Source: an uncultured Woeseia sp. (lineage in GTDB: Bacteria > Pseudomonadota > Gammaproteobacteria > Steroidobacterales > UBA11654). From it: a DNA stretch of 56,820 nt. Each line of letters opens with the position of its first letter. Within the stretch, counting starts at the first letter, position 1. Both the position numbers and the translations under genes were made by a program. The stretch is taken from NCBI GenBank assembly GCA_964416745.1, contig CAYQEV010000003.1:1-56820 (forward strand). The letters are read 5' to 3'. The notes under the pieces were generated by a model that was given only the letters and a program-made list of their open reading frames with translations, was not told the DNA's origin and did no database searches. Positions 21,459-56,820 of this stretch are shown one piece after another.

Positions 21459-21459
21459 G

Positions 21460-37277: not shown

Positions 37278-38030
37278 ATGAAATTAAAAAACAAAATAGC
37301 TCTTATAACAGGCTCTTCATCAGGCATAGGCCAAGGCATAGCAAAACTTTTTGCACAAGAAGGGGCAACGGTAGTGGTCAATTATCCTAGTGAAAAAGAG
37401 ACAGACAATGCTGATAGTACATTGGAGTTAATTACTAGTGATTCCCCTGATTCTATAACCCACATGGCCAATGTTTCTGTAGAAAATGAAGTTATTGAAA
37501 TGATTGACAGTATAAAAGATAGATTTGGAACTATTGATATCCTTGTTAATAATGCAGGGATAGCAACCAGCGCCCCTATTCATGAAATGACATCACAAAT
37601 GTGGAACGAATTACTATCCATACATTTGAGCGGAACGTTTATGTGCACAAGAGAGTGCCTCAAGATTATGTATAAAAATAATTATGGACGAATAATTAAC
37701 ACAGCATCCCAATTGGCTTATAAAGGAAGTGCAGGTTTTGCTCATTACACAGCAGCGAAAGGAGCAATAATATCTTTCACAAGATCATTGTCGTTAGAGA
37801 TTGGCAATAAGAATATTAGAGCTAATTGTGTTGCACCTGGCGCAACAGAGACAAGAATGCTAGCTGATGTTCCACAAGAAATACTAGATGGTATTAGACA
37901 AAGCATACCAAAAGGGAATATTGCTCATATTGATGAGATTACACCAGCATACTTATTTTTAGCTTCAGATGCTGGTAACCACTTTGTGGGTCAATGTATT
38001 AGTCCTAATGGTGGTGATGTATTTTTATAG
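37278..38030 (+). CDS. Classical short-chain dehydrogenase/reductase (FabG-like)
   Basis: 250 aa. TGSSSGIGQG, NNAG, catalytic YTAAK. Confidence 0.88.
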   Translation: MKLKNKIALITGSSSGIGQGIAKLFAQEGATVVVNYPSEKETDNADSTLELITSDSPDSITHMANVSVENEVIEMIDSIKDRFGTIDILVNNAGIATSAPIHEMTSQMWNELLSIHLSGTFMCTRECLKIMYKNNYGRIINTASQLAYKGSAGFAHYTAAKGAIISFTRSLSLEIGNKNIRANCVAPGATETRMLADVPQEILDGIRQSIPKGNIAHIDEITPAYLFLASDAGNHFVGQCISPNGGDVFL

Positions 38031-40724: not shown

Positions 40725-42119
40725 ATGCATAGATCCTTTAGAGAAATTGTTAACATCCTTGATAAAAAAGGGAGCCTCATACATATCAAAAAAGAGGTTA
40801 ATCCTAAATTTGAAATGCCAGGAATAATGAAAAAACTAGAGCAGGAAGGTAAGGCGTTTATATTCGAAAACATTAAAGGCTCAAACTATAAAGCAGTTGG
40901 CGGAATATTTACTTCCATGGATCGTTATGGGTTAATTTTTAATGAAGACGCTAGTGAAAGCTTCACATATGATCAAGCCGGTAAAAAAGTTCAACAAGGA
41001 ATATCTAATCCTATTCCTTATATTCAAAATGACACAGGCCCCATAACAGAAAACATATTAACCAATGATGAAATTAATTTATTGGACTTACCTGTGCCTA
41101 CATTTTTTGAGCTAGATACAGGACCATTTATTACAGCAGCAGTAGGTATTTTCAAAAAACCAGGAGGTGAAATTAATGTTGGTTTTTATCGATGCCTGAT
41201 TGTTGACGAGAAACACATATTAATTAATGCTAGCGGCCTGAGCGACCTACGTAAAAGCTATAATTGGCATCGCGAAAACAATAAAGAAATGAAAGTCGCT
41301 ATGGTTTTGGGTGCGCCCCCAGCCTTATTAATGGCTGCTGCTTCAAAATCACCAGAACATATTTCGGAACTGGATGTGGCCGGTGGAATTATAGGGGATG
41401 GGGTTAAAGTAGTGTTGGGCCCTAAAACTGGATTACCTATTCCAGCTGATGCTGAGATGGTCATTGAAACCGTCGTTGATCTCGACAATATGGTGGAAAA
41501 TACGTTGGGTGAGTTTGGTGCACAGTATGGAACTGAAACAGCGCCGATGTGTAAGGTCACATCAATTCTTAAGCGGAACAATGCAATGTTTTATTCATTA
41601 ATGGCTGGCAGAGCCAAGGAACATAACAATTTAGGTTATCTAACTGTTTATGGAATGTCGGAAATGATTAAACAGAAAATTAAAGAGGTTTTTTCATTTG
41701 TTACTGATGTGGTGGTTCATTTTGATACTAAGATAGGCCCACTAATGCATCTTGTTATTGCTATTAAGAAATCATCAGATTTGCAACCGAAAGAGGTTAT
41801 TAATGAAGTGTTTAATATTAACATGGGATTTTTCAATTTATCCTGGATGGCTAAACGGGTAATTATTGTTGATGACGATGTAGACCCATCTAATATGGAT
41901 GATGTTGAATGGGCAACATGGACAAGAATGGGTCGGGCAGAAAAAGTTTATTTATTTTCAGATTTTATTACTTGGGAAATTGATAGAGCAGCATTGCCAG
42001 ACAAAACTTCATTAAGGGTTGGAATAGATGCAACAAAAGACATGGAACAGGTTGATGATTTAGTTAGGCCTGTTGTTCCGGGGATTGATAATATAAATCT
42101 AGATGATTACATTAGTTAA
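40725..42119 (+). CDS. UbiD-family (prFMN-dependent) reversible decarboxylase
   Basis: 464 aa. UbiD-like layout with the acidic motif VENTLGEFGAQYG (compare EGPFGE in characterised members, from memory). No ubiX in the window. Confidence 0.8.
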   Translation: MHRSFREIVNILDKKGSLIHIKKEVNPKFEMPGIMKKLEQEGKAFIFENIKGSNYKAVGGIFTSMDRYGLIFNEDASESFTYDQAGKKVQQGISNPIPYIQNDTGPITENILTNDEINLLDLPVPTFFELDTGPFITAAVGIFKKPGGEINVGFYRCLIVDEKHILINASGLSDLRKSYNWHRENNKEMKVAMVLGAPPALLMAAASKSPEHISELDVAGGIIGDGVKVVLGPKTGLPIPADAEMVIETVVDLDNMVENTLGEFGAQYGTETAPMCKVTSILKRNNAMFYSLMAGRAKEHNNLGYLTVYGMSEMIKQKIKEVFSFVTDVVVHFDTKIGPLMHLVIAIKKSSDLQPKEVINEVFNINMGFFNLSWMAKRVIIVDDDVDPSNMDDVEWATWTRMGRAEKVYLFSDFITWEIDRAALPDKTSLRVGIDATKDMEQVDDLVRPVVPGIDNINLDDYIS

Positions 42120-42140
42120 TTATAAAAGAGGGTATTAATA

Positions 42141-43196
42141 ATGGATCCATATTTAGCGGTAGGACTCCAAACTAAGATCAAGCACGTCACATCTCGCCAA
42201 GAAGTGAGTAGAAACTTAAACCATATTGGCAACATGATAGATATGGTAACTCACATGTGCTCTTTAGAGCTTCCTGTTAGGCTTATTGCTCTAGGGGAGG
42301 GGGCAATTCAGGGTTTTGTTGATGAAATAATGGATTTGGATCAAGCTGACTACGCTAAGAATATGGCAGCCGAGATTCCAGGGTTTGAAACTGATTTCTT
42401 GGGTAAATACGCTAAGAGTAAAAATACTTTTATTATTGGGCAACTAAAAGAAAAATTACCAGATTACCCAGATCGTTTCTTCAATACAGTTTTTATTATT
42501 GATGACAATGGAGATGTTATTTATAAACACCATAAAAACATTGTTGTCTTTGTTGAACACTCGACAACGCCTCACGATGTTTATGATCAATGGATTGAGC
42601 AACACGGAGATAGCCTTGAAGCGTTTTTCCCTGTTGCCAAGACCAAGATTGGCAATATAGCAGGCACGGTTGGTGTAGAGGGTTCTTTTCCAGAATCATT
42701 CAGAGCATTTGCTATGAATGGAGCAGAAATTCTTTATCGAGCGTCATTGCCGGAGCCATGGGTTTCAAGAGAAATCTTTGAGGTTCAAAATCGTTCCAGA
42801 GCAATTGACAATACCTGTTATATGGTTGCACCTAATTCTGGGTCACTGATTATGCCTGGAAACGAAGGCGAGGACCCAACAGTGATTGATGGTGCTCTCG
42901 GTGGTTGCTCCTCAATTATTGATTATAAGGGGACAGTTTTAGCCCATAACCAAATCGTGGGCGACAGTTATGTCGCATCTGAAATTAATATTGATGCACT
43001 TCGATACTATAGAGAAAATGCAAAGTTTCAAAATTGGATTCCCTACTTGAAGACCGAGATTTATAGAAAAATATATGATCAAGAAATATGGCCAAAAAAC
43101 CTACCTCCAATGAATCATGAAGATGCTGGAGAAGTCTTTAAAAAGACAATCAAAAAGCTTATTGAGTCTGGGGTATACACCCCAAGAAATAAGTAA
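42141..43196 (+). CDS. Carbon-nitrogen hydrolase (amidase/nitrilase superfamily) paralogue lacking the nucleophile cysteine
   Basis: 351 aa. Roughly one-third identical by eye to the 45560-46702 protein along its whole length. Glu (ALGEGA) and Lys (YKHHKN) positions are kept, but the nucleophile elbow reads GTVGVEGSFPE where the paralogue has TLICAEGSYPE. 21 nt downstream of the UbiD gene. Confidence 0.75.
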   Translation: MDPYLAVGLQTKIKHVTSRQEVSRNLNHIGNMIDMVTHMCSLELPVRLIALGEGAIQGFVDEIMDLDQADYAKNMAAEIPGFETDFLGKYAKSKNTFIIGQLKEKLPDYPDRFFNTVFIIDDNGDVIYKHHKNIVVFVEHSTTPHDVYDQWIEQHGDSLEAFFPVAKTKIGNIAGTVGVEGSFPESFRAFAMNGAEILYRASLPEPWVSREIFEVQNRSRAIDNTCYMVAPNSGSLIMPGNEGEDPTVIDGALGGCSSIIDYKGTVLAHNQIVGDSYVASEINIDALRYYRENAKFQNWIPYLKTEIYRKIYDQEIWPKNLPPMNHEDAGEVFKKTIKKLIESGVYTPRNK

Positions 43197-43200
43197 ATCC

Positions 43201-43635
43201 TTAAGAAATTATTAGTCGCATTAGCACCATCTCTACTGCTATTTTATCTACATCTTGTCTTATAGGCCTACCTTGCTTATAACCCACTTCAGCAAAAAAA
43301 CCAGAAACCCTGCTGTGCTTACAAATTGCCTCAAGTTGATCTGCAATTAATTTATTATCCTCAAACTCAACATCAATCTTAGCTTCAATCATGTTACCTT
43401 TATATAAGAGCTTTATTTTTTCTAAATTGACTAGGTTTCTCCACCAAATAAATGGTCGATCTGTTATGCAGCTAAGTCTACCTTCTGGGTTTTCAAGATA
43501 ACTAACAGGAATGGCATAATCTTTTCCAGTTTTAACCCCCTTAAAATATAAGACAACTACATTTGCACTTATTAATCCATGTAAGAATGAATTTGCTATC
43601 GCAATCGTAATTGGGTTTATCAGTTTCCAGAACAT
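43201..43635 (-). CDS. Small DUF385-like (deazaflavin-dependent nitroreductase/quinone reductase fold family) protein
   Basis: 144 aa. Pattern ..VVVLYFKGVKTGKDYAIPVSY...IWWRNLVN..KIKLLYKG.. resembles the DUF385/split-barrel family. Weak assignment. Confidence 0.45.
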   Translation of the reverse strand: MFWKLINPITIAIANSFLHGLISANVVVLYFKGVKTGKDYAIPVSYLENPEGRLSCITDRPFIWWRNLVNLEKIKLLYKGNMIEAKIDVEFEDNKLIADQLEAICKHSRVSGFFAEVGYKQGRPIRQDVDKIAVEMVLMRLIIS

Positions 43636-43656
43636 AAAAATTATTATAACTGGATT

Positions 43657-45543
43657 TTATAACATTAACTGTTCGTTGACTGCTCGATCAGCAGCATCTA
43701 TAGCGCCAATAAGATAAGCGTAAGCCGAGGCATCTGAGTTAGCTATTGAAATACGTCCAATTTGTGCTCGGCCAGCAATGTGCGGCCCATTGCTTGGGCT
43801 GAATTCCACAGGATCAGAATAATCAAGATATTCGTAGGCATAACCATGTGGCCATCGATTAACTGTAATTGCTGCTATGTCTTGCTCTGCATCAAATCCA
43901 CCGTCACGCAGTGCACCACTCATTTGGCTAACAATGTTTTTCTCAAAATCATCAAAACTCATTTCATATAACCTAGTTCTTCCAGCTATACATTGCTCTC
44001 GAGCATTCAGCCCTTTATCCGGGTCTAGGGGTACATGAGTACCATGAATAACAGTCGGCTCGTCTGGATTTTGGGTGAAATTGTAACCTCCCATACTGAC
44101 TGGAAAATCAAGACCAAACGAATGCATTAAACTGGGTTGTGGGATATAGAAACTTCGGTATCCAAGATTTGAGAATGCATTCCAATTCCTAACAGCAACA
44201 CTGATATACACTAACGGCATTTTTGTGGCATAAGCAATGGCTTCCTTCTGTGCATCAGGCACCTCGGGACAAATATCTGGAATAATATTGTTGTAGCATG
44301 CCATGATCACATGGGCTCCTCTCACTCGATATGGGCTTCCATCCTTGATATAAGTAACATCGACTGACTTCTCACTTGGCGTATGCTCTACTTTAACAGC
44401 CGTAGAGTTTAATCTGATACGAACCTTTAATGAGTCCAAATCAAGCCCGGCATAATCAACTCTTGCTTTCACAAGATCTTCCATGGTTGTACCTGAAATA
44501 GCGCTAGGTATTAACTCACGGACAATTGATCGAGCAAACCCTGCATTACCATCTGGAAAATGAAAAATATAAGGCTCATCCCTCTCATAGCTTTGTTCGG
44601 CTATTTTGAGGTTAAGACCCAGTGTTCCAGGCATATCTGATTTATAGGCATCCAAAGCAGATAATGCATCCCACCCTATGCCCCATAGACCTCGAGACAT
44701 ATCTCTGTAGAGCAATACAACCTCTTCAGAAACATTGACGTATTTTCTTAAAAAATCACTATAACTTGTTTGTCTAAGCAGATTAATTTTATCCTCTTGA
44801 GACCCCATCCCTAGGAGGTAATTCTCTGTTTGACTCAGTAATTTAATCAGAGCAGTTTTTGAAGCTTCAGCAATAGGGTAGGCATTAATAAGGTCAATGA
44901 TCTCCTGTTCATTATCTTTTATTTTGGCTCCCAAAATATTATCTGATACATAATCTTTGCCATATTGATCACGACTGAAATACAGACCACGACCTAGTTT
45001 TCGATCTTTGAAATAATTACGATCAAAATAATCATAAAAACGCTCGGTGTGAACCCCTACATCTTTGAGTAGTTTCTTCCCTACAGGAGACCAACTGCTT
45101 GGGTCAGCGATAGATTGACTGCCTCCATAGCCAATCAGTTGCTTGCCATCAACAGTGAACTCATTACGTTTTGCATGACCCCCAAAATCATCATGATTAT
45201 CTAAAATTAATATTCTTGAATTCTTCCCATGACGTTGCTTGTAGAGATACGCTGCCGATAGACCTGAAATACCTCCTCCAACAATCACAAGATCATAATC
45301 ACGATCAGTCTGATCAGTAGGCTCTGTCCAACGTGCACCATTTCTAGCCAGGGCGTGTGCAACTTCAAATGAACCAGGATGACTGCCTCGCATACCGATG
45401 AGTTCAGGTGGATATAATGCATCAGCACTGGATTGATGACTCATGGCGAGTAGTTCAAGAGGTGATAATGCAGTGCCTGCAGTCAAACTCATAGCTACAC
45501 CGTTCATAAAATCACGCCGCGTAATGTTTAACTTTTTAGTCAT
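43657..45543 (-). CDS. Tat-exported FAD-dependent amine oxidoreductase, spermidine-dehydrogenase (SpdH)-like
   Basis: 628 aa. Twin-arginine signal ITRRDFMNGVAMSLTAGTALS, dinucleotide fold YDLVIVGGGISGLSAAY, and size and layout like Pseudomonas SpdH as remembered. Confidence 0.65.
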   Translation of the reverse strand: MTKKLNITRRDFMNGVAMSLTAGTALSPLELLAMSHQSSADALYPPELIGMRGSHPGSFEVAHALARNGARWTEPTDQTDRDYDLVIVGGGISGLSAAYLYKQRHGKNSRILILDNHDDFGGHAKRNEFTVDGKQLIGYGGSQSIADPSSWSPVGKKLLKDVGVHTERFYDYFDRNYFKDRKLGRGLYFSRDQYGKDYVSDNILGAKIKDNEQEIIDLINAYPIAEASKTALIKLLSQTENYLLGMGSQEDKINLLRQTSYSDFLRKYVNVSEEVVLLYRDMSRGLWGIGWDALSALDAYKSDMPGTLGLNLKIAEQSYERDEPYIFHFPDGNAGFARSIVRELIPSAISGTTMEDLVKARVDYAGLDLDSLKVRIRLNSTAVKVEHTPSEKSVDVTYIKDGSPYRVRGAHVIMACYNNIIPDICPEVPDAQKEAIAYATKMPLVYISVAVRNWNAFSNLGYRSFYIPQPSLMHSFGLDFPVSMGGYNFTQNPDEPTVIHGTHVPLDPDKGLNAREQCIAGRTRLYEMSFDDFEKNIVSQMSGALRDGGFDAEQDIAAITVNRWPHGYAYEYLDYSDPVEFSPSNGPHIAGRAQIGRISIANSDASAYAYLIGAIDAADRAVNEQLML

Positions 45544-45559
45544 TCTCTAAATCTGACCA

Positions 45560-46702
45560 TTAACTAATATCTTTTGCTTTATCGATACGGCTTTGAACTG
45601 ATTCACTAACTTCATAAGGTTCCCAGTTATCTGGGGGCGAATACACCCCCATTTTGACCATTTTGTTCACTTGATGTTTAACTAATTCCAATTGATCTTC
45701 TTCTGTAAATGGCGGTTCGTCCATACATAAATTCCTAGGGTAAATACCTCCTTTTGCCATCATTGCATCGTAGATCACTTTATATTCCTCAACTCTCATA
45801 TCTTTTGCTAAATTTTGCCACTGCCCCCTTACGCGAAAATCTCTCAAACCATCAATATTAATGATGCCGCTAACAAGAGCCTCGCCTCCACCTAAATATT
45901 CAGAAATAATTTGTCCACGATAGTCAATAATTTGGCTACGACCATTGCTCATTTTAAAGTCATCCATTCCGGGCATATATATGCCTCCGATATTTGGAGC
46001 AAGCACATAACATGTATTAAAAATAGCATGTGATTGATTTTGAATTTGGTTCATTTTATTACCCATCCATGGTTCAGGGTATTGAGATCGATATATAACT
46101 TCAGCTCCATTTAAAGCTAACCCCCTGGCAGCTTCTGGGTAACTACCCTCAGCACAAATCAATGTTCCAATATTACCGATTTCAGTTTTAGCAACTGGAT
46201 AAAGAACATCAAGAAGTTTTTCTGGATCATCACCATATTTCTCTAAATACAGGTTCCATATATCACTTGGGGCAGTATTTGTTTCTCTTTGATAAAAAGA
46301 CGTTTTTATATGTTGGTGTATCACGTCACCATTAGGGTCAATCATAAAGGCTATATTGAATATTCTGTCTTTCATCAAATCAGGAGCTTTGGCGATCATT
46401 TGGGCAATAAGATAAATATTAAACTCTTTACATATAGCCCCCAGAAATTCTGTTTCTTTACCTGGAATTTCTGGCACCACTTCTCTAGAAATACGAATAT
46501 GCTCATCACCTCCGCCTAGACACCAACCACCTATTCCGCCCTCAGAAACCGAAACTAATCTTACAGGTAGGTCTAGGCTGCAGTTCCATACTGCATAACC
46601 AATGCTGGTTTGAAGACGTTCAAGGTCTTTCCAATAGTCATCAATGCTTGTCGCCATATGCGACTCATTTTGTATACCCACAGCGGTATATTGAAGTGTC
46701 AT
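45560..46702 (-). CDS. Carbon-nitrogen hydrolase (aliphatic amidase-like), catalytic triad intact
   Basis: 380 aa. Glu in SVSEGG, Lys in HQHIKT, Cys in GTLICAEGSYPE (compare AmiE IICDDGNYPE, from memory). C-terminal ~60-aa extension. Confidence 0.78.
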   Translation of the reverse strand: MTLQYTAVGIQNESHMATSIDDYWKDLERLQTSIGYAVWNCSLDLPVRLVSVSEGGIGGWCLGGGDEHIRISREVVPEIPGKETEFLGAICKEFNIYLIAQMIAKAPDLMKDRIFNIAFMIDPNGDVIHQHIKTSFYQRETNTAPSDIWNLYLEKYGDDPEKLLDVLYPVAKTEIGNIGTLICAEGSYPEAARGLALNGAEVIYRSQYPEPWMGNKMNQIQNQSHAIFNTCYVLAPNIGGIYMPGMDDFKMSNGRSQIIDYRGQIISEYLGGGEALVSGIINIDGLRDFRVRGQWQNLAKDMRVEEYKVIYDAMMAKGGIYPRNLCMDEPPFTEEDQLELVKHQVNKMVKMGVYSPPDNWEPYEVSESVQSRIDKAKDIS

Positions 46703-46818
46703 AATTTACCCCTTAGCTGAATTACTAAAAATAATCTCTTTAACTTGTTACTATTTGTTCTTTATTTATAAACAATATTATAGTCCTTAATCAATCTACA
46801 AATCCAAATGAGGTTTCA

Positions 46819-48087
46819 ATGAATCAATCACCAACAAATCAAAACACTCAGAAACAAGAGATATTATCCTTCTCAGAGATACCAGCGAGCGCATATAAAA
46901 TTTTCTTTATTTGTTTGATTGGCGTAACTTTTGCCAATTTAGATCATTCTATTTTTATTTTGGTAAGTGAAAAATTTCAAGAAGATTTTGGATGGGATCT
47001 AACAGATGTGGGTTGGTATGTAGCGATTACATTTTTTATATCCGGAATACTTTGTACCCAAGTTGGAGTGCTTACTGATCGTATTGGTAGAAAAAAATCA
47101 TTATTAATTTCAACATTTTTGACTCCTATTTTTGTTGGTTTTCTAGCTATTGCTCCTAATACCTTATCAGTATTAATTGCTAGAACTCTTGGGTTTACTG
47201 CAGCAGGAGCGCAGTCTCCTATTACACTGACCACGGTTACAGAGTCTTCTCCACCAAGATTTAGAGGTTTGTTTACAGGTATTTTACAAATTGGTTTTCC
47301 GTTAGGTTGGTTCTTTGCTTCAATATTGGTGGTCTTTATGATTGATAATTTAGGCATTAATTGGAGATATACATTTCTCTTAGCCTTTTTATTTGTGCCT
47401 TATGGTTGGGTTATTCATAAGTATTTACCAGAATCAAAAGTATGGCTTGAGGCTCAAAATAAGAAAACTGAGAATCAGCCAAAGCCCAGTACTATGGTTT
47501 TATTTTCTGACAAGTATAGAAAAAAATCACTGCTCTTATTTTCAGGCCAATTTCTTTATGCTTTTGCTTATGGAAGCACATTAATGTTGGTTCTTTATTT
47601 TACACAAGCAAGGAATTGGGAGATTGTAGATGCTATCAAGATAGTTGGGCTTTCATATGGCATAGGGTCTTTTGGTTATATTGCTGCTGCAATCGTGGGA
47701 GAGTTCTTATTAATAAGAAGAAATACTATTATTTTATGGGCATTGCTTGGAGGCCTAGCTTTTATTTATTTAATATGGATGGCTGATTCTTGGAATAAGG
47801 TGCTGATTAGTTATGGATTAATGACTTTGTTTTTTTATGGTGCTTATGCGGTCATGGCAACCTTTATTGCTGAAAATTTCCCTGCAGAAGTTAGAGCAAC
47901 AGGAGCTAGTTTTTGTGGAACATTAGCTATTAATTTAGGCTTCGGTTTGGGACCTTTAGCTATTACATATGCAGCAACTGATTATGGCTGGAATATGGGA
48001 TACACAATAGTAGGAATCATACCAATAATTGCTGCGGCTCTTATTTTTCTATTCTTGAAGCCCGTACCTAGAGAAGATGTGTTTTAA
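46819..48087 (+). CDS. MFS transporter (organic acid/metabolite:H+ symporter-like)
   Basis: 422 aa, 12 TM, MFS motif A GVLTDRIGRKKSLL. Confidence 0.85.
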   Translation: MNQSPTNQNTQKQEILSFSEIPASAYKIFFICLIGVTFANLDHSIFILVSEKFQEDFGWDLTDVGWYVAITFFISGILCTQVGVLTDRIGRKKSLLISTFLTPIFVGFLAIAPNTLSVLIARTLGFTAAGAQSPITLTTVTESSPPRFRGLFTGILQIGFPLGWFFASILVVFMIDNLGINWRYTFLLAFLFVPYGWVIHKYLPESKVWLEAQNKKTENQPKPSTMVLFSDKYRKKSLLLFSGQFLYAFAYGSTLMLVLYFTQARNWEIVDAIKIVGLSYGIGSFGYIAAAIVGEFLLIRRNTIILWALLGGLAFIYLIWMADSWNKVLISYGLMTLFFYGAYAVMATFIAENFPAEVRATGASFCGTLAINLGFGLGPLAITYAATDYGWNMGYTIVGIIPIIAAALIFLFLKPVPREDVF

Positions 48088-48130: not shown

Positions 48131-49582
48131 TCAATTTGCTGGTCTAAGTGGTTTAATATGCAGCTCCCAATCAGCATGGTCATCTGGCCCTTGGGGTCCG
48201 ATCATGCCCTCAGCTGACTTTAGTAACATCTCTGGGTAATATATTTCACCACCTTTAATCACTAATTTGATATTCCGTGTAACCTTAATATCTTCAAATG
48301 GATTACCCTTGATAACGAGGACATCAGCCAGTTTTCCAGGTTCTATGGAGCCAAGTTTGTCTGCAATACCAAGAGCGCTTGCACCATTAATTGTTGCTGC
48401 TTTTAGTACTGCAATGTTTGGTAAACCTGCATGTACCATTGCCAAGAGCTCTCGATGAAATGCAAACCCAGGCAATAAAGTTGTATAGACAGGCTCATCG
48501 GTACCCACAATCAGGAGATTCTCACCGCCAGATTCATAAAGCCTGTTCAGTTCAAGCACGCGTTGTGCATATTCGATCACGTCTGATTCTGGCAGTGGCT
48601 CACCCCGTTTCTCAAGTAAAGTTTGTGCGTAGGGGGTGAAGTATTTTGCTTCATTCGTCCAAATCATATCTGCACCAAGTTCTTTTCGTAGGTTAACTCC
48701 ACCGTACATCTGCAGGTTGGCGTCATAATACACCTGGTATTGTAGAATCAGATCAATCATTTGCTCCATATCAGCACTGTCTTGACCGCCGCTACCCAAT
48801 GTAATCTGATGCTCCAGACGATCCAAACCCATCAAGATCGCATCTCTTGGGTGCACATCGTATTCCCATTCGTAATTGGCCAAATGCCCTGTTGTTGTCA
48901 TACCGTGTTTATGTGCTTGCTCAATTACAATTTTGGTTTCACCGGGAGTTGCTTGTTTAATTTTGATGCTGATAACACCCCGTGCAGCCCATTTATCCAC
49001 TTCAGCTCGCATTTCCTCTTCTGTAATGTCATTTGGCCAAGCAGAGCAATTATCTGCCGCAGTTTTAACGCTATATTCGCATCTAAATCCACCAAAATAA
49101 GGGCCTGAAGCGAAAAGCCTCGGACCGATTGCTTTATCACTATCTATTAGATCTCGCTGTCTAAGGACACGCTCAGGATAGTATTCACCTGCTGACCAGG
49201 TTGACGTCACTCCGTTTGCTAAGAAAATGATGCCGTTATTGACAACTTCTTCCACACGACCTACATCGACGAGATCAAAATTGTAGTGTGCATGCAGATC
49301 AATCATGCCAGGTAGAATTGTTTCTGACTCGGTCAGGTCTATTACGTTAGCTCCTGAAAGATTTCCCCCTTGTATATTTGCATCAATTTCAACAATTTTC
49401 CCCTCACGAATCACAATACCTTTGTTGAGTCTTCGTGTGTCGCTGATGCCATCGAACAACCAACCACCGCGAATCACGATTTCTTCTGAAGGTGGTTCTG
49501 ACCATTGTGCATATGAAGCACAAGATAGAAATAAAAGAATGAGAGTTGCTTTATTTAATAAACGGCTAATTGATAAGTGCAC
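48131..49582 (-). CDS. Secreted metal-dependent amidohydrolase (PF01979-type)
   Basis: The track ORF starts at 49657 inside the upstream gene. The GTG at 49582, 7 nt after the upstream stop, gives (M)HLSISRLLNKATLILLFLSCASYA/QW, a plausible Sec signal. HxH metal motif in LPGMIDLHAHY. Confidence 0.82.
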   Translation of the reverse strand: MHLSISRLLNKATLILLFLSCASYAQWSEPPSEEIVIRGGWLFDGISDTRRLNKGIVIREGKIVEIDANIQGGNLSGANVIDLTESETILPGMIDLHAHYNFDLVDVGRVEEVVNNGIIFLANGVTSTWSAGEYYPERVLRQRDLIDSDKAIGPRLFASGPYFGGFRCEYSVKTAADNCSAWPNDITEEEMRAEVDKWAARGVISIKIKQATPGETKIVIEQAHKHGMTTTGHLANYEWEYDVHPRDAILMGLDRLEHQITLGSGGQDSADMEQMIDLILQYQVYYDANLQMYGGVNLRKELGADMIWTNEAKYFTPYAQTLLEKRGEPLPESDVIEYAQRVLELNRLYESGGENLLIVGTDEPVYTTLLPGFAFHRELLAMVHAGLPNIAVLKAATINGASALGIADKLGSIEPGKLADVLVIKGNPFEDIKVTRNIKLVIKGGEIYYPEMLLKSAEGMIGPQGPDDHADWELHIKPLRPAN

Positions 49583-49589
49583 TATCTTC

Positions 49590-52352
49590 TTAGGTCTCAA
49601 TATATCTCTCAAAATCACAAGTGTAATCATGAAAAGTATGGTTGGGCTCATAGGCAAAAGGCTTCCATCCTAGATGTTCATAATCTCCCACTAACGAAGT
49701 GGGTTTAATTAAACCACCAGTTTGAACAACAGCGCTGAAGTTTTGTCTATTCCTAAACATCATAGGGTCCCAACCATGATACATATACATCATATTGGGC
49801 CCCATGGCAGAGGTCACATGAGCTTGTGCTATAAAAGAACCCGCTATACTAAACACTTTAACTAAGTCACCATCACTAACACCCTTGTTTTGTGCGTCAT
49901 CAGGGTTAACATAGACATCAGGCTCACCTCTCTGAAGGCTTAGCAGAAAACTGTCGTCTCTCCACATACTATGTATTCCATGACGAGCATGACCCATGAG
50001 CATTTTCATTGGGTAACCCTCATTGACCAAGGGATCTTTATGACGTGGTAGAACCTCATCAAATTCAAAAAACCAATCATGATCAATATAAAATTGCTGT
50101 CGATGAGTGAGCGTTTTATACCCAACTTTATGGTTAACGCTTTCCCAGATCTCTGAGTAATAAGGGGACTCTTTACTATGAACTGTTGTTTCAGAGCCTT
50201 TATTTCTTGAAAAACCCTTCTCAGCGAGCTCATCATAACTTATTTTTTGTATACCGCTTGAGTTGTTAAGAAGAAATTCAATAACATCCTTGACTGAACG
50301 AATTGAGCCATCACTAGTGTAGTCTTTATGGAAGTTCTTAAAATCTCGTTTAAAAGGAACGCCAACCACATTATCATCAATCGGCTTGATATCTCTTTCT
50401 ATTGCTCTTTGAGCAATTGCTTTTGATAATTTTTCATAAGCCGTCCAGTCATCTACCGACTCCCCAAGTGGTTCAACCGCCTTATCAATTACTTGCATAT
50501 AAGGAGTTCTAGGCTCTAAATGAAAATCATGTCGTTCATAATGGTGTGCAATAGGTAGAACATAATCAGAATACATTGCAGTTGTGCCCATATCAGTTGC
50601 AAAGGTAACAATTGTTTCTAATTTGCCAAATGCATTTTCTCTCCAATGTTGACCTGATGAACGCCAACTGGCCGCGTTAGTGCCTGAGAACATGCCCATT
50701 TTCCAGGGGACTTTTGAATAGTCAGGAAACCAACCCTTATCTGTTGATTCTTGAAAGTATCGGTCATACTCCTCCGCCAATTCTTCGCCATAAACCTCTT
50801 TATTTAGTTCTTTCATGTTCCCATGGACATAATCCCATCTTGAGAGAGTAGCAACTCTAAAGGCAGCTATAGGGTTTTTCATGGCAAAAGGAAAAACAGC
50901 ATCATCTTTTGCTAGGTTAGTAATGGTGAGGCCGCCCCCTTCTTTACCAGTATTACCAGTAATGCATAATAATAAAAAGAAAGCTCTTTGGAGCAAATCC
51001 CCATGTAAATACTTGGAGGCTCTATAACCTGCATAAATCATGCCGGGTTTTGCCTCTGCAAATTTTCTTGCTACTTCTCTTATTACCTCAGCATTAATGC
51101 CAGTAATATCTTGAGCCATTTCTGGAGTATGTTCCGAGGCTCTTTGTTTAGTGAGCTCAAATACAGTGGTAACAGTTACAGGACCATCTTTAGTTTCAAT
51201 AACCCACTCACCTTCCAATGCCGGATCAATTTCACCAAGATCAATAGAGGGCATTGGTGGTATTAAATGTTCAGGGGTGCCTGGAGGTGGAGGCGGAGGT
51301 GTTCCTGTCCCAGGAGCAGCTATAAAACTATCAGTGTTGTTATCCCATAAATAAAACAAATTATCTCTTGTTTCTGGGCTATCCAGGATGTCGGTTTCTC
51401 TTATGTATTTATAATTATCTTTTCTTACAAGAAAAGGGAGATCCGATTGTTCCTTTATGTATTTTACATCATAGGTTTTATCATCCAGTATGGTTTTCAC
51501 CATTGCCATTGCTAAAGCAATATCACTGCCTGGATTGGGGTTTAACCATTTACTTGCATGCATTGCTGTGGCATTAAAATCAGGAGAAATTGAAATAACT
51601 TCTGTTCCATTATATCTTGCTTCCCAAAAGAAATGAGCGTCAGGAATACGAGTCACTGCAGGGTTACAGAACCATATCAGACAACATTTAGACTTATAGA
51701 TTTCTGCCATGGTATTACCCAGCGTTACATGCCCTAAGGTAATTTGTGCTCCAGAAAATAAATCACCAACTCCTGCGAAGGCTTCAGGCATTTGAACCCC
51801 ACTAATATTGGCAAATCTAAGTAAGCTCGCATAAGAAGCCCTTTTCATTACCATTTGTGTGCCTAGTCCGCAGGTGATCGATTCAGGCCCATCTTCAAGA
51901 TTATGATCTATAAATTTATCTGCCACTTCTAGCATCGCTTGGTCCCACGAAATTCTTTCCCATTTGCCTTCGCCTCGCTCACCAATACGCTTTAAGGGGT
52001 ACAAGATTCTTTGCTTGCCATACATATACCTTGAATGACTTAATCCCTTTTGACAGCCTCTCGGTCCATAGTCCGGGGCATCACTTGATGCACCATACTC
52101 TCCTTGCTGTTCCTCTCTCCAAACAACGCCATTCTTTACAAAAACATTGAAAGCACATTGTCCTGTACAGTTGGTGCCATGTGTGGAGTGAGTGACACTA
52201 TCCCATGTCCATTTTTTTCGAGCCAAGTCTTCCCATGCTCTATAAGGTGTTGATGCTTGCCCAAGAATTGAGGAAGAGTAGTTAAGCGTTAAACTTGAAA
52301 AAGTTGTTCCAAGTAAAAAATTTCTTCTGTTAGTTTTTATGTTGGAGTCCAT
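49590..52352 (-). CDS. Tat-exported molybdopterin oxidoreductase, type II DMSO-reductase family (NarG/EbdA/DdhA-like catalytic subunit)
   Basis: 920 aa. Twin-arginine signal TNRRNFLLGTTFSS. FS0 cluster motif H-x3-C-x3-C-x33-C in THGTNCTGQCAF..GPRGCQKG. Candidate Mo-ligand Asp in AFAGVGDLFSG. Hexaproline tract GTGTPPPPPPGTPEH encoded at 51282-51299. Confidence 0.8.
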   Translation of the reverse strand: MDSNIKTNRRNFLLGTTFSSLTLNYSSSILGQASTPYRAWEDLARKKWTWDSVTHSTHGTNCTGQCAFNVFVKNGVVWREEQQGEYGASSDAPDYGPRGCQKGLSHSRYMYGKQRILYPLKRIGERGEGKWERISWDQAMLEVADKFIDHNLEDGPESITCGLGTQMVMKRASYASLLRFANISGVQMPEAFAGVGDLFSGAQITLGHVTLGNTMAEIYKSKCCLIWFCNPAVTRIPDAHFFWEARYNGTEVISISPDFNATAMHASKWLNPNPGSDIALAMAMVKTILDDKTYDVKYIKEQSDLPFLVRKDNYKYIRETDILDSPETRDNLFYLWDNNTDSFIAAPGTGTPPPPPPGTPEHLIPPMPSIDLGEIDPALEGEWVIETKDGPVTVTTVFELTKQRASEHTPEMAQDITGINAEVIREVARKFAEAKPGMIYAGYRASKYLHGDLLQRAFFLLLCITGNTGKEGGGLTITNLAKDDAVFPFAMKNPIAAFRVATLSRWDYVHGNMKELNKEVYGEELAEEYDRYFQESTDKGWFPDYSKVPWKMGMFSGTNAASWRSSGQHWRENAFGKLETIVTFATDMGTTAMYSDYVLPIAHHYERHDFHLEPRTPYMQVIDKAVEPLGESVDDWTAYEKLSKAIAQRAIERDIKPIDDNVVGVPFKRDFKNFHKDYTSDGSIRSVKDVIEFLLNNSSGIQKISYDELAEKGFSRNKGSETTVHSKESPYYSEIWESVNHKVGYKTLTHRQQFYIDHDWFFEFDEVLPRHKDPLVNEGYPMKMLMGHARHGIHSMWRDDSFLLSLQRGEPDVYVNPDDAQNKGVSDGDLVKVFSIAGSFIAQAHVTSAMGPNMMYMYHGWDPMMFRNRQNFSAVVQTGGLIKPTSLVGDYEHLGWKPFAYEPNHTFHDYTCDFERYIET

Positions 52353-52378: not shown

Positions 52379-53023
52379 CTAAGCGTTATGTTGTCCTGGC
52401 AATACAAGAACTTTACCACTCGCTTGACCAATAGCAAATTCGACTAGATTCATTCGATCATTACCGAAAAATATTTGGTTTTCAACAACCATTGTGGGGC
52501 TACCATAACCACCTTTATCTATAAGTTCATTAGTGTTCTGTAATATGATGTCATGATTTTTTTCACTTTCAATAGTCAATCTAAAGTTGTCTATATCCAT
52601 ATCTAATTGTTTGGCAATCCCAATTAGAATCTCACTATCAGCAATATCAGCCATGTCACTAAAAAATGCTTTAAACACTTTTGCGCTGTATTCAGCAATG
52701 GTGTTTTCAGTTATTGCAGCTAAAGCACCCCTAGATGCTTTAAGGGACACGCTGTGATCTAAATTTTTATGTTCTTTAATATCAAGACTGCAGTAAGATG
52801 CCCAATCTTGTAGGTCTTTTGTACGATAATCAGCTACATAGTCAGGTGTAGTTTGTGTCGGCTTATTCAGTAGTTCCTTAATTATATCTAGGTTAATTGG
52901 CTTCCATTCAATGATTGACGCGGTTCTAGTTGCCGTTTGTATAAGTCGCTTAAAACCTAAGTATGTCCAAGGGCAACTATAGTCAAAATAAAACTTAACG
53001 GTGATTTTTTTTTCGCTCATCAA
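52379..53023 (-). CDS. 2-hydroxychromene-2-carboxylate isomerase / kappa-GST (DsbA-like) family protein
   Basis: 214 aa. Single-Cys thioredoxin-fold motif FDYSCPWTYLGF and C-terminal SPTMVVENQIFFGNDRM, typical of the HCCA isomerase family. Confidence 0.75.
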   Translation of the reverse strand: MMSEKKITVKFYFDYSCPWTYLGFKRLIQTATRTASIIEWKPINLDIIKELLNKPTQTTPDYVADYRTKDLQDWASYCSLDIKEHKNLDHSVSLKASRGALAAITENTIAEYSAKVFKAFFSDMADIADSEILIGIAKQLDMDIDNFRLTIESEKNHDIILQNTNELIDKGGYGSPTMVVENQIFFGNDRMNLVEFAIGQASGKVLVLPGQHNA

Positions 53024-54582
53024 GAGTCCTTTCGTAAGGTTGTTTTTAGAACTTTACCATTAGCATTTCTAGGAATTGAGTCTATAAATTCGATAATTTT
53101 TGGCGTTTTAATTTTAGAAATATTCTGTTCACAAAATGCAAGTACTTCTTCCGATTTTAGTGCATTAGGATTATGGGTAACAATAAATGCCTTTAAAGAT
53201 TCCCCCCATTTTTCATCTGGAACTCCAATAACTGCAACATCTTGTATATTGGGGTGGTTATATAAAACATCTTCTATTTCTCTTGGGTAAATATTCACCC
53301 CACCTGAAATCACCATATCTTTTTTTCGATCAACGATATACAAGTAACCGTCTTCATCTTGTTTAGCCATATCACCCACTGTTAACCATCCATCAACTAA
53401 GGCTTCTTTTGTGTCATTAGGCCTTTTCCAATAACCATTAAATAGATAAGGACTCGTAGAGAACAATTCACCGACCTCATTTGGTTCACAGATATTTCCT
53501 GACTCTGTAAGGGTTTTAATTTCTGTGCAAGGAAACGCTTGCCCCACACATTGTAACTTTTTGAGTTGATCATCAGGCCTTAAATTAGAGATAATCCCTC
53601 CCTCTGTTGACCCATAGGTTTCATGAAGTAGGCCTGCACCGAAGTGTTCAATAATTTGTTCTTTTACCTGTTGGGGCAGAGCTGCAGCATTAGAAATGAT
53701 TGATTTAAGTTGATGAGATTTCGCATTATTAAGAATAGATTGCTCAAGACTAAGAATGCCATGGAAATGTGTTGGCACTCCAAAAAACCCGGTAATATTG
53801 TCATTTTTCATTGTTTTTAAAACAACCTCTGGGTCAAAAGAATCCATTATTTCTGCATAACCACCAAAGAAGATAGGAGCTAAAGAGAAAATCATACCGG
53901 CTCCATGACACATGGGTGCAATAGCTAGAAAACGGTCATCAGGAGAGTAACAACCATACTCAACCGCCATTCCAAATAAAGTTAGGATTCTTGAGCGATG
54001 TGGCACCAGAACCCCTTTAGGTTTTCCAGTTGTTCCTGAGGTGTAAGGCATGGTGAACACATCCCATTCCATAACAACCGGACTTTCTTTGAGAGGTTTG
54101 CTGATATTAATCCAATCCTCAAGGTCGCTTTCAATCACAATAATTTTTTCAACTGTTGAGAAAACAACATTTTCTAGAGCCATATACGATGCCTGGTCCA
54201 TAAACAGGATCTTAGCTTCAGCATCATCACATATTGCCTTAATTTCCTTGTCAGATAATTTGGGGTTCACTGTAGCTATGGGTATACCAGCTTGAGAGGC
54301 CCCTAAGACTATCTCCATATATTCAATAGAATTACTAGCGACTATAGCAACATGGCCTTCAGAGGGGTTTAAATGATGCAGTAACCCAGAAGAGATCCTA
54401 TCCATTCGTTGGACCAAATCCTTATAGGTTCTTTTTTTGTTTCCATGTTTATAGGCAGTTTTACTTGGGTTCCTCGACATTGCGGAACGAATACCTTCGG
54501 GTATTGATAGGTGTCTATAGGTATTAGGTAATTGAATGTTTGATTCCACTCTATTTATCCAAGTTGAATACTTGAATCGCAT
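53020..54582 (-). CDS. AMP-dependent acyl-CoA synthetase/ligase
   Basis: 520 aa. YTSGTTGKPKGV, YGSTEGG, GDMAKQDEDGYLYIVDRKKDMVISGGVNIYPREIE. 4-nt overlap (ATGA) with the downstream gene and 32-nt overlap with the upstream gene. Confidence 0.9.
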   Translation of the reverse strand: MRFKYSTWINRVESNIQLPNTYRHLSIPEGIRSAMSRNPSKTAYKHGNKKRTYKDLVQRMDRISSGLLHHLNPSEGHVAIVASNSIEYMEIVLGASQAGIPIATVNPKLSDKEIKAICDDAEAKILFMDQASYMALENVVFSTVEKIIVIESDLEDWINISKPLKESPVVMEWDVFTMPYTSGTTGKPKGVLVPHRSRILTLFGMAVEYGCYSPDDRFLAIAPMCHGAGMIFSLAPIFFGGYAEIMDSFDPEVVLKTMKNDNITGFFGVPTHFHGILSLEQSILNNAKSHQLKSIISNAAALPQQVKEQIIEHFGAGLLHETYGSTEGGIISNLRPDDQLKKLQCVGQAFPCTEIKTLTESGNICEPNEVGELFSTSPYLFNGYWKRPNDTKEALVDGWLTVGDMAKQDEDGYLYIVDRKKDMVISGGVNIYPREIEDVLYNHPNIQDVAVIGVPDEKWGESLKAFIVTHNPNALKSEEVLAFCEQNISKIKTPKIIEFIDSIPRNANGKVLKTTLRKDS

Positions 54583-55408
54583 TCTCTCGGAGAACTAGTT
54601 TTTTAGATGAATCTTTAAAATTTAGATTATTAAATTCATCAACTGCTCTTATCGGATCGATAACAGGCCAGTCAGTTCCAAACATGACTTTATGTTTTCC
54701 ATATGAATTAGCATAATGAACAAAGGATTCCGGCCAATATTTAGGTGCATAAGCATCGCCAGCCGTATAAATATTCTCATGTTTCCAGCACATCGATATC
54801 ATTTCTTCAGTCCAAGGAATACCAATATGTATACCAATAAGCTTTAACTCTGGGAAATCAATGGCTACTTGATCCAAATATATTGGTTTGCCAACACTGG
54901 GAAGTCTTCTATTTTTTGAATAAATTAAATTATGTCCAACTTGCATCATGATGGGTATTCCAAGTTCACAACATTTTGCATAATAAGGGTAATACTTCCG
55001 GTGATTTGGTGGTAACTCACACCAATGAGGGTATAGGTGAGCACCAACAAAACCATATTCTTTAACTGCGGCTTCTAAATCATTTAACCCTTCCATACCC
55101 CTAAATGGATCTACACCAGCCAATCCAGAAAATCTGTCTGGGTTTTGACGGCAAACATCGTAGACTCTTTCATAAGGTATCTCAAAAGATTCAGGAACTT
55201 TGATATCACCAGCCCTGACAGCAATTAATAATGACCTTTCAATACCAGCTTGATCCATTTTCTTAATATAATCAGGGATCGTAACACCACCCCTCATCTC
55301 TTCTGGCATTCTTACTTGTTTTTTGAAATCTTCGTCCAGGCCTGTTTGTCCAAGCTCCACTTCCTGTGGAGTAAAAAGATTAACCACAATGTCGATTATG
55401 CCACTCAT
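54551..55408 (-). CDS. Amidohydrolase_2 (PF04909; ACMSD/LigI-like metal-dependent hydrolase/decarboxylase) family protein
   Basis: 285 aa. N-terminal IIDIVVNLFT, IMMQVGH, IGIHIGIPW, and C-terminal FGTDWP aspartate motif. Confidence 0.78.
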   Translation of the reverse strand: MSGIIDIVVNLFTPQEVELGQTGLDEDFKKQVRMPEEMRGGVTIPDYIKKMDQAGIERSLLIAVRAGDIKVPESFEIPYERVYDVCRQNPDRFSGLAGVDPFRGMEGLNDLEAAVKEYGFVGAHLYPHWCELPPNHRKYYPYYAKCCELGIPIMMQVGHNLIYSKNRRLPSVGKPIYLDQVAIDFPELKLIGIHIGIPWTEEMISMCWKHENIYTAGDAYAPKYWPESFVHYANSYGKHKVMFGTDWPVIDPIRAVDEFNNLNFKDSSKKLVLRENAIQVFNLDK

Positions 55409-55444: not shown

Positions 55445-56350
55445 TTATTGACCATCTAAATCCCATGGCCCTGTTGATTTAGACCTAACTGGAATTCCAG
55501 CCATTACTGGTGCTTGAGTTTCTGGATCATAGTTAACAGCATCACCTTTGACAATAACTTCTGAATTAAGAGTAACCCAGTTAATTAGAGCTCCATCTAG
55601 CCTAAAGATCCAACTTGCTCCCATTTCTTCACCCGTAATAAAATGGCCATGCTTCACTTTTGCTGGCCTGAAAAAATAAGTCCCAGGTGTGAAACGTCCA
55701 AAATTATAATCAAGATGCCCAGTTAAAGTATAAGCTTCCTCAAAAATGGGATGATGTATGAGTCTATCATCTGTCCATCCTGGTGGCGCCCATCCAAGCA
55801 TAGTAATAAATCCTTTTTCATTCTGGTCCTCGGGAGACGGATCATGGTAGAGAATTTTGAGTTGTAAAAAACGCTGTGTATCACCTTCATAGATATTATC
55901 CATCCAATCCATTTTTGTGGAATCGCAAACAGTTAATTTACCAGGCTCTTCTGAGGCAGTGTTGCCCCCTTCAGGAATAAAATCACTCTTATCTGTTTCA
56001 GAAACTGAAAAGCCCCAATCACCATACTCTCTAAAAATAAGAACTTCAGCACCCTTATCAACACTAATGGCAGGAACTTTCAAACCAGCCGGTGCTCGCC
56101 AATACATTCCCGGACCAAAAATTTGGTCTCCCATTTTTACTTTACCTTCTAAGACAAACCATTCTGTGTCAGCTTCATGATAACCAGCAGGACGATCCCA
56201 TTCAGTTTCAAAATATAGTTTTGTTGAACAAGATCCATCTTCTTCATCATAAGAGAGGTTTCTTTGCATTACTCTTCCTGTGCCTGCGTGAAGTTCAGCA
56301 GGGTGCCAACAAAGGTCACTTTGTTGTATTAGTTCTACATGAGGTCTCAT
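55445..56350 (-). CDS. Bicupin protein, second barrel ChrR-like (cupin_7-like); function unknown
   Basis: 301 aa. Two cupin-like cores: HEADTEWFVLEGKVKMGDQIFGPGMYWRAPAG and HHPIFEEAYTLTGHLDYNFGRFTPGTYFFRPAKVKHG. First gene of the minus-strand operon. Confidence 0.6.
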   Translation of the reverse strand: MRPHVELIQQSDLCWHPAELHAGTGRVMQRNLSYDEEDGSCSTKLYFETEWDRPAGYHEADTEWFVLEGKVKMGDQIFGPGMYWRAPAGLKVPAISVDKGAEVLIFREYGDWGFSVSETDKSDFIPEGGNTASEEPGKLTVCDSTKMDWMDNIYEGDTQRFLQLKILYHDPSPEDQNEKGFITMLGWAPPGWTDDRLIHHPIFEEAYTLTGHLDYNFGRFTPGTYFFRPAKVKHGHFITGEEMGASWIFRLDGALINWVTLNSEVIVKGDAVNYDPETQAPVMAGIPVRSKSTGPWDLDGQ

Positions 56351-56473: not shown

Positions 56474-56749
56474 ATGTCTGAAATAAGACTTTCATGGTCT
56501 GGCACTAATGTTACTGTGACGGAAGAATATTTGGATGAAACCCGTGTTTCAATCAACATGGAGCAGAGTAGAGCTTTTAGAGACTGGCGAGTTCCAAGAG
56601 CAATAGAGTTAGCACAAAGAAATCTAGAAGCCTTAGAGGCTGACAATGCTTCAGAAGAAATACAAGCTACTTTAGCCATGTACATAGGAGAACTATATAT
56701 TTGGCAAGAGGACGGTGAGTTAGTCGAGCCGGAAGTTAAAGCAAGTTAA
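56474..56749 (+). CDS. Hypothetical small acidic protein
   Basis: 91 aa. Strong RBS AAGGAGAGG 4 nt before the ATG. No recognisable motif. Divergent from the operon. Confidence 0.55.
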   Translation: MSEIRLSWSGTNVTVTEEYLDETRVSINMEQSRAFRDWRVPRAIELAQRNLEALEADNASEEIQATLAMYIGELYIWQEDGELVEPEVKAS

Positions 56750-56770: not shown

Positions 56771-56820
56771 ATGGCTGAGTATGAGATATGGAAATTCTTG
56801 CACATTTGTATGTTTGTGTT
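56771..56820 (+). CDS. Start of an ORF running off the window (MAEYEIWKFLHICMFV..), possibly a membrane protein
   Basis: ATG at 56771, 21 nt after the previous stop. Only 16 codons are visible. Confidence 0.3.
   Translation, partial: MAEYEIWKFLHICMFV

Follow-up and report, generated by a model that had tools for sequence, protein, structure and literature searches.

The window analysed here, a 56.8-kb stretch of DNA from an uncultured Woeseia sp. (contig CAYQEV010000003.1, positions 1 to 56,820), carries the gene for a 920-aa molybdoenzyme of the type II dimethyl sulfoxide (DMSO) reductase family, a catalytic subunit that we call alpha, unaccompanied by genes for the beta, gamma and chaperone (delta) subunits of such enzymes. 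Our results suggest that genes for the partner beta and the chaperone probably exist at another place in the genome and are not truly absent. For the orphan state of alpha, trans-encoded subunits are the most probable explanation, an ordinary arrangement in this clade. As to its role, we propose that alpha is the periplasmic catalytic subunit of a catabolic, water-dependent oxidase or hydroxylase that receives both beta and delta in trans, a proposal that in its complete form we hold to have about an even chance of being right.

Alpha belongs to the MopB (DMSO reductase) superfamily: both molybdopterin domains are present (Pfam Molybdopterin, PF00384, 4.9e-37; Molydop_binding, PF01568, 4.1e-15; Molybdop_Fe4S4 was matched weakly), and the fold agrees. 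By far the best NCBIfam model was TIGR03479 (DMSO_red_II_alp; 877.4 bits, 875 of 913 positions aligned), followed by the models for EbdA (NF042978; 444 bits, cut-off 2000), NarG (314 bits, cut-off 1084) and DmsA (214 bits). Note that the TIGR03479 score does not reach the curated cut-off of 984.75 bits, which we read as the sign of a divergent subfamily of the type II clade. Among the solved structures, the best sequence match was the perchlorate reductase subunit PcrA (4ydd), over the full length and with E = 7e-162, and EbdA and NarG came next. In support of this placement, the predicted ligands of the [4Fe-4S] cluster FS0 (H58, C62, C66 and C100) align with the corresponding His and Cys residues of PcrA and EbdA and are invariant, together with their surroundings, in an alignment (A1) of 25 clade members. 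D197, the predicted molybdenum ligand, aligns with D170 of PcrA and D223 of EbdA and is invariant in 75/75 typed alphas.

Export of alpha by the twin-arginine translocation (Tat) system is predicted from the motif TNRRNFLL at residues 7-14, whose R9 and R10 are invariant in the same 25 members. The signal pattern RRxF...LxLx(Y/F) is common to the alphas of all three locus types described below, and the signal-peptide region is where a NarJ-type chaperone is expected to recognise alpha. A pseudogene or relic was ruled out by the intact open reading frame (ORF) and by a dN/dS of 0.04-0.06 in comparison with the relatives L005 and L007, which places alpha under strong purifying selection. Judged by its sequence, alpha is a Tat-signal, FS0- and Asp-bearing catalytic subunit of the type II DMSO reductase family, and the subfamily around it, large and uncharacterised, is about 35% identical to PcrA. 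A previous sequence-only reading of the window had proposed the H-x3-C-x3-C-x33-C motif, the aspartate of VGD as a plausible molybdenum ligand, the twin-arginine leader and the type II assignment, and all four hold up in these comparisons.

When all window ORFs of at least 100 aa were scanned with Pfam, none encoded a NarH-type ferredoxin, a NarJ/TorD-type chaperone, an EB_dh/NarI-type haem-b subunit or a molybdenum-cofactor protein. Neither CxxCH nor CxxCxxCxxxC occurs in any open frame of at least 40 aa in the window, and hence no c-type cytochrome is encoded. Compared with the canonical alpha-beta-gamma-delta holoenzyme, beta, gamma and delta are thus all without a gene in the window, as the sequence-only reading had stated, and the genes that it had described on the two sides of alpha, a DSBA/HCCA-isomerase-like gene upstream and an amidohydrolase gene downstream (Amidohydro_1, with a signal peptide), are also as reported. 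Its wider statement that no Fe-S, cytochrome or chaperone gene lies anywhere in the window needs to be narrowed: it is right for cytochromes, chaperones and NarH-like proteins and wrong for Fe-S proteins at large, since GltB/GltD and a Rieske oxygenase are present.

Homologues of alpha fall into over 1400 protein clusters, and 185,579 species-representative genomes, one per species, yielded 314 relatives when scanned; the best 80 of their loci were retrieved. The loci were typed by clustering of their flanking ORFs, and the counts given here refer to loci with enough flank to judge. Type A, to which the window belongs (49 alphas), has the order DUF4437 cupin/Amidohydro_2/AMP-ligase/DSBA-like/alpha; a beta gene was found in 1/34 loci, a delta gene in 0/34, a fusion of a major facilitator superfamily (MFS) transporter to cytochrome c (MFS::cytochrome c) in 0/34, and the gene for a membrane protein, c6, in 26/30. 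Type B (21 alphas) reads alpha/NarJ-like delta/NarH-like beta/MFS::cytochrome c, with beta and delta each in 18/19 loci, the fusion in 17/19 and c6 in 0/16. Type C (8 alphas) reads CN-hydrolase/alpha/beta, with beta in 5/6, delta in 0/6, the fusion in 1/6 and c6 in 0/5. Pfam confirmed the type-B assignments, and moeA often lies just upstream of these loci. Thus, the absence of beta and delta in cis is a conserved property of the type-A locus. An EB_dh-type haem-b gamma was seen in no locus of types A, B or C examined, so that type B, which has delta and beta, also departs from the canonical layout.

The type-B alphas are 56-59% identical to that of the window, whose nearest relatives (95-97% alpha identity) are marine metagenome-assembled genomes that bear the label Woeseia or Gammaproteobacteria. 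In a public collection of assemblies, 81 blocks contain a protein identical to that of the window, among them ocean metagenome contigs (TARA and others) of up to 237 kb. A first neighbour-joining tree suggested that type A is monophyletic; bootstrapping then gave 19% for all type A, 100% for its marine clade and 95% for its non-marine clade.

The evidence for beta and delta in trans comes from the relatives. A type-B locus lies on a separate contig in six assemblies (JAQWSZ01, DTSX01, CACDKD01, PBDY01, CACJRN01 and CALMWC01) that have a type-A alpha 80-83% identical to that of the window, and two of the six carry names in the style of single-amplified genomes (AG-365-L08 and AG-447-O13). Moreover, in the loci L079 and L074 a complete type-A operon is followed directly, on the same strand, by a beta gene; L079 is the positive case among the 34 scored loci, and L074, truncated by its contig, lies outside them. 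Both are non-marine and nested in the non-marine type-A clade. Their type of beta is 79-81% identical to marine type-B betas, and the betas among the matches listed are 72-91% identical to that of L079, compared with about 57% between alphas of different types. Since the betas are far more conserved than the alphas, a shared beta is plausible.

The alphas themselves are consistent with this. Of 920 columns, 230 are identically conserved in type-A and in beta-linked (types B and C) alphas, 18 scattered ones are conserved in types B and C and variable in type A, and 16 show the reverse, so that no relaxed surface patch is seen in the type-A alphas. There is also a precedent within the clade: Sterolibacterium denitrificans has eight alpha genes of the steroid C25 dehydrogenase (S25DH) kind; its beta/gamma sets are fewer, and the chaperone is present in two copies (PMC6153880). 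The sequence-only reading had argued from the orphan state in cis to a different electron partner or to non-redox chemistry. That argument loses most of its force with type-B paralogues standing beside delta and beta and with a second locus in six assemblies; the finding which that reading had itself named as telling against it, homologues beside beta and delta genes with these carried elsewhere in the genome, was largely made in the relatives, through the paralogues and the same six assemblies.

Several points weigh against the proposal of an oxidase or hydroxylase with beta and delta in trans. The six assemblies closest to the window (88-97% alpha identity; L005-L009 and L019) have no type-B locus among the best 80 loci retrieved, and no beta or delta lies on the complete type-A chromosomes checked (3,492,814, 3,488,967 and 3,387,766 bp) among the best 120 of 7857 betas and the best 120 of 688 deltas. 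The type-A loci with beta in cis belong to the non-marine clade, and because all type A groups together with a bootstrap of 19%, what L079 and L074 tell is carried to the marine clade of the window by shared synteny. The tight association of c6 with type A, and its absence from types B and C, could mean a different partner. The structural model of alpha is too uncertain around the cofactor sites for judging the docking surface, the substrate and the catalytic direction are read from neighbouring genes only, and beta and delta are extrapolated from relatives to the genome of the window.

Some of these points would fit a beta-less enzyme, in which FS0 would pass electrons directly to c6 or to a small soluble cytochrome c. 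This would be a new type II architecture with a logic like that of NapA-NapB, in which an alpha exported by the Tat system and equipped with one [4Fe-4S] cluster delivers electrons directly to a cytochrome c subunit with no four-cluster ferredoxin between them. The rarity of beta in type A (two loci, counting the truncated L074), the lack of delta from all 34 scored loci, the presence of a small cytochrome c (cluster c30) close to five type-A loci of non-marine origin and the six closest assemblies lacking a type-B locus among those retrieved would all be expected of such an enzyme. So would the distribution of c6, a membrane protein of about 222 aa with about six transmembrane (TM) helices, which is cut by the window end and complete in the contigs L085-L089, whose alpha is identical to ours (c6 at L085:4914-5582), and in L018 (c6 at 4858-5538). 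In L079, alpha-beta is followed by two copies of c6, at the place expected of a membrane anchor. One further copy lies near the unclassified L061.

However, the alphas of L079, L074 and L090 adjoin a beta, no surface of the type-A alphas is seen to be relaxed relative to the beta-linked ones, the window encodes no cytochrome c, and a second locus with beta and delta is present in six related assemblies. Nor does c6 look like a redox protein: its invariant residues include H11, W18, G20, D22, R42, W94 and K154, with a single invariant His, in TM1, its Pfam and PDB sequence searches gave no match, and no redox motif is recognisable. As an analogue NapA is distant, a member of a different branch with a Cys ligand, whose models match alpha only with E = 1.7e-13 and 5.4e-12, and the window has no napB-like gene. 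Thus c6 may leave room for a new electron partner of type-A alphas and could equally be a transporter, and we regard a beta-less enzyme as possible but doubtful. A more specific form of this idea, that type-A alphas are a widespread, ocean-abundant class with neither beta nor dedicated chaperone, wired from FS0 directly to c6 and devoted to the water-dependent hydroxylation of heteroaromatic carboxylates (normally the work of xanthine-oxidase-family enzymes), seems to us rather unlikely.

An AlphaFold model of alpha (mean predicted local distance difference test score, pLDDT, 66; predicted template modelling score, pTM, 0.70) was used for fold search only, with pLDDT below 50 across the segments that hold the FS0 ligands and D197. 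The predicted fold resembled PcrA most closely (TM-score 0.81), then EbdA (0.76) and NarG (0.72), and acetylene hydratase and pyrogallol transhydroxylase less (0.55 and 0.51). With PcrA as the closest solved structure, alpha might be a reductase that serves respiration or detoxification and acts on an oxyanion or on an S- or N-oxide (chlorate, perchlorate, selenate, nitrate or DMSO-type); it might also be a dimethyl sulfide (DMS) dehydrogenase. In either case its catabolic neighbours would be there by coincidence. The characterised relatives with an Asp ligand do include ClrA, SerA, DdhA and NarG (PMC10100899). PcrAB of Azospira suillum (4ydd, 5ch7) and alpha share an end-to-end alignment, the H-C3 FS0 site, the Asp ligand and a periplasmic alpha of the Tat type, but the identity is only 35%, pcrB, pcrC and pcrD have no counterpart in cis, and the operon here is catabolic.

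Moreover, the gate residues are not kept. The aromatic gate F164/Y165/W461 of PcrA corresponds to A191/F192/T478 in alpha, with a deletion of four residues before T478 (the numbering of the gate agrees with the PDB titles of 5ch7 and 5e7o), and His192 of EbdA aligns with Gln166, so that the active site is predicted to be neither PcrA-like nor EbdA-like. At the position equivalent to PcrA 164, type A has Ala, type B Phe and type C Thr or Ser, a variation that fits paralogues with different substrates; the two or three paralogues per genome that differ at this position likewise fit substrate diversification better than a respiratory reductase. The tight operon with a coenzyme A (CoA) ligase and hydrolases, conserved across 47 loci, also points to catabolism, and neither chlorite dismutase nor respiratory accessory genes were found near alpha in the window. 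We therefore consider a reductase unlikely. NarGHJI is like our system in belonging to the Asp-ligand clade, in having FS0, and in the NarH-like beta and NarJ-like delta of the paralogous loci. Unlike alpha, NarG has about 1240 aa, and NarGHI faces the cytoplasm with NarI as its anchor, whereas alpha has a full RR signal, no NarI and a NarG model score far below the cut-off.

The absence of a partner gene in cis would also suit a non-redox hydratase or transhydroxylase with no external electron partner, an analogy with acetylene hydratase and pyrogallol transhydroxylase that the sequence-only reading had drawn, and acetylene hydratase too keeps an FS0 cluster. Yet both enzymes are distant from alpha, not only in the fold comparison, where PcrA is much closer, but also in sequence, with matches over partial stretches only (3e-25 and 1.5e-10, respectively). 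Acetylene hydratase has a Cys rather than an Asp ligand, the sibling alphas are coupled to betas with four clusters and to cytochrome c domains, and FS0 is as invariant as its surroundings. Non-redox chemistry is in our view highly improbable.

Returning to the proposal of a periplasmic enzyme with subunits in trans, alpha would be matured by a NarJ-type chaperone and paired with a NarH-type four-cluster beta, both supplied by a paralogous locus at another place in the genome, with the order alpha-delta-beta-MFS::cytochrome c. An organic substrate, most likely an aromatic or N-heteroaromatic compound with a carboxyl group, would be oxidised or hydroxylated with oxygen from water; the electrons would run from molybdenum through FS0 and beta to a c-type cytochrome or membrane partner, and the product would be imported by the MFS transporter and then handled by the CoA ligase and hydrolases in the cytoplasm. 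The periplasmic ethylbenzene and p-cymene dehydrogenases are known to feed cytoplasmic CoA-ligase pathways. Here, the catabolic role is inferred because the ligase, the Amidohydro_2 protein, the DSBA-like protein, UbiD and the CN-hydrolases resemble catabolic enzymes, and the type-A operon is one of cytoplasmic enzymes (bicupin, Amidohydro_2, CoA ligase and HCCA-isomerase-like protein). Furthermore, L090 has alpha-beta-UbiD-CN_hydrolase as one co-directional block (L090:2714-9079), a gene order that would tie the molybdoenzyme functionally to the UbiD and CN-hydrolase genes flanking the window locus.

Enzymes of the ethylbenzene dehydrogenase (EBDH) type (EbdABC(D), CmdABC, S25DH) are periplasmic, hydroxylate organic substrates with water and feed such CoA-ligase pathways, and they resemble the present family in having several alpha paralogues per genome, as in the alpha surplus of S. 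denitrificans. They differ from it in the EbdA model score, which alpha misses widely, in the His192 position and in the gamma subunit, as no haem-b gamma was seen here, with MFS::cytochrome c in type B and c6 in type A. The MFS transporter with a C-terminal cytochrome c domain (about 650 aa) stands directly after alpha-delta-beta in its type-B loci (L060:14412-16364, L091:11088-13070 and 15 others) and may be an unusual membrane-tethered electron acceptor.

The features of the window are collected in the table below.

Table. Alpha, its sites and the other features of the window, in order of position.
Feature	Position	Strand	Evidence or remark
GltB/GltD, Fe-S proteins	16827-22956		Pfam
NmrA-like protein	35319-36179	-	
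Rieske ring-hydroxylating oxygenase, alpha subunit	36185-37201	-	Pfam
Short-chain dehydrogenase/reductase (SDR)	37278-38030	+	
Tyrosine integrase	38134-39402	+	Phage_integrase and Arm-DNA-bind_3
UbiD decarboxylase	40725-42119	+	Pfam; best PDB 6h6x/6h6v 3e-40, then AnInD
CN_hydrolase	42141-43196	+	Pfam
Hypothetical protein	43201-43635	-	Conserved accessory block
Tat-signal flavin adenine dinucleotide (FAD) oxidase, 628 aa	43657-45543	-	Pfam FAD/NAD_binding_8; twin-arginine ITRRDFMNG
CN_hydrolase	45560-46702	-	Pfam
MFS transporter	46819-48087	+	Pfam
Amidohydro_1 with signal peptide, overlaps alpha 3' end	48131-49657	-	Pfam
Alpha subunit, type II DMSO reductase family (molybdenum bis-pyranopterin guanine dinucleotide, Mo-bisPGD, and FS0, both predicted), locus type A	49590-52352	-	920 aa, ATG start
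Hexaproline tract, residues 352-357, type-A-specific loop	51282-51299	-	Sequence and loop comparison
Asp197 (VGD), predicted Mo ligand	51762-51764	-	Aligns with PcrA D170, EbdA D223
FS0 [4Fe-4S] motif H58-x3-C62-x3-C66-x33-C100 (predicted)	52053-52181	-	Aligned with PcrA and EbdA H/C residues
Predicted twin-arginine signal peptide, about residues 1-33	52254-52352	-	RR = residues 9-10, nt 52323-52328
DSBA-fold protein, 2-hydroxychromene-2-carboxylate (HCCA) isomerase/glutathione S-transferase (GST)-kappa-like, SCPWT motif, no signal peptide	52379-53023	-	Pfam DSBA 7e-32; PDB 2imd 1e-11
AMP-forming acyl/aryl-CoA ligase	53020-54582	-	Pfam AMP-binding; PDB feruloyl-CoA synthetase 8wev 2e-72
Amidohydro_2 metal-dependent hydrolase, decarboxylase or hydratase	54551-55408	-	Pfam 5e-41; PDB 3irs, LigJ 2gwg 5e-10
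DUF4437 bicupin, first operon gene	55445-56350	-	Pfam DUF4437 and Cupin_7; PDB 2qdr 3e-6
91-aa protein of unknown function (c16), divergent from operon	56474-56749	+	No Pfam match
c6, first 16 codons (MAEYEIWKFLHICMFV), cut by window end	56771-56820	+	About 222 aa and six TM helices in full

The DSBA-like gene ends 26 nt upstream of alpha, and its product resembles HCCA isomerase. Its family (cluster 4) is present in 36/85 sequences, although in some loci of high GC spurious antisense ORFs hide the ORF, and the DUF4437 bicupin family is found in 37/85 sequences analysed. The CoA ligase and Amidohydro_2 genes are conserved across type-A loci; the Amidohydro_2 protein is distantly related to LigJ and gamma-resorcylate decarboxylase. 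The Amidohydro_1 gene, for which gene callers place the start at about 49651 (506 aa), is confined to the closest marine relatives, and c16, between the cupin gene and c6, to marine type-A loci. Close to the type-A alphas lie genes for an MFS transporter, for two CN-hydrolases and for UbiD, and the synteny of the accessory block of the window (40725-48087, UbiD to MFS) recurs in type-A loci. The best PDB matches of UbiD are entries that we take to be the furan-dicarboxylate decarboxylase HmfF, and the CN-hydrolases resemble aliphatic amidase and formamidase. The FAD oxidase encoded between the two CN-hydrolases is a second predicted Tat-exported redox enzyme of this block.

The sequence-only reading had also remarked on a hexaproline insert in alpha. 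The tract is there, but it is not an insert: the PcrA loop at this position is longer and unrelated, and a five-proline form (PPPPPG) is common among type-A alphas, with a different loop in types B and C. The form with six prolines is confined to the nearest relatives of the window (L005-L009, L019). As polyproline stretches stall translation, dependence on EF-P is expected for it.

No description of the subfamily was found in the searchable literature, and a 2023 MopB review gives NarG, PcrA, ClrA, SerA, DdhA, S25dA, CmdA and EbdA as the only characterised members of the clade. In our view the subfamily itself, its ocean abundance and its unusual accessory modules are the moderately interesting part. 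Automatic annotation labels the alphas 'molybdopterin-dependent oxidoreductase' or 'DMSO reductase family type II' and the betas nitrate reductase beta or steroid C-25 hydroxylase beta, and gene-centric surveys could thus miscount members as markers of nitrate reductase, DMS dehydrogenase or hydrocarbon degradation. Linkage to a CoA ligase, UbiD and amidases points to an oxygen-independent, molybdenum-dependent step that helps pelagic and sediment Gammaproteobacteria to break down a common dissolved organic compound. In addition, a family that departs from the textbook alpha-beta-gamma-delta layout should be useful for studying the exchange of electron-transfer modules.

Finally, some further features of these loci were noted. 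The tyrosine integrase gene lies in the 2-kb bin of lowest GC (0.293) of the window, which has no tRNA gene, and at the edge of the block that holds the alcohol dehydrogenase (ADH), UbiD, CN-hydrolase and molybdoenzyme genes. The same integrase cluster recurs in nine of the analysed sequences, so that any island would be old or conserved. Just upstream of the integrase, the Rieske gene stands between the NmrA-like and SDR genes; L091 likewise has an oxygenase of the Rieske/VanA type after its type-B operon. In five non-marine loci (L043:12757-13467 and its equivalents in L022, L033, L042 and L065), type-A alpha has an unexpected neighbour directly downstream, a ferredoxin-dependent bilin reductase homologue (PF05996, 1.7e-17). 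In the 1237-aa P0072 (JGI), C-terminal AMP-ligase sequence continues in frame as an RR-bearing alpha with no intervening DSBA gene. This fusion was not used as evidence for a cytoplasmic location, the internal RR signal being kept; as its cause we favour the loss of a stop codon or an artefact of gene calling over a true fusion.

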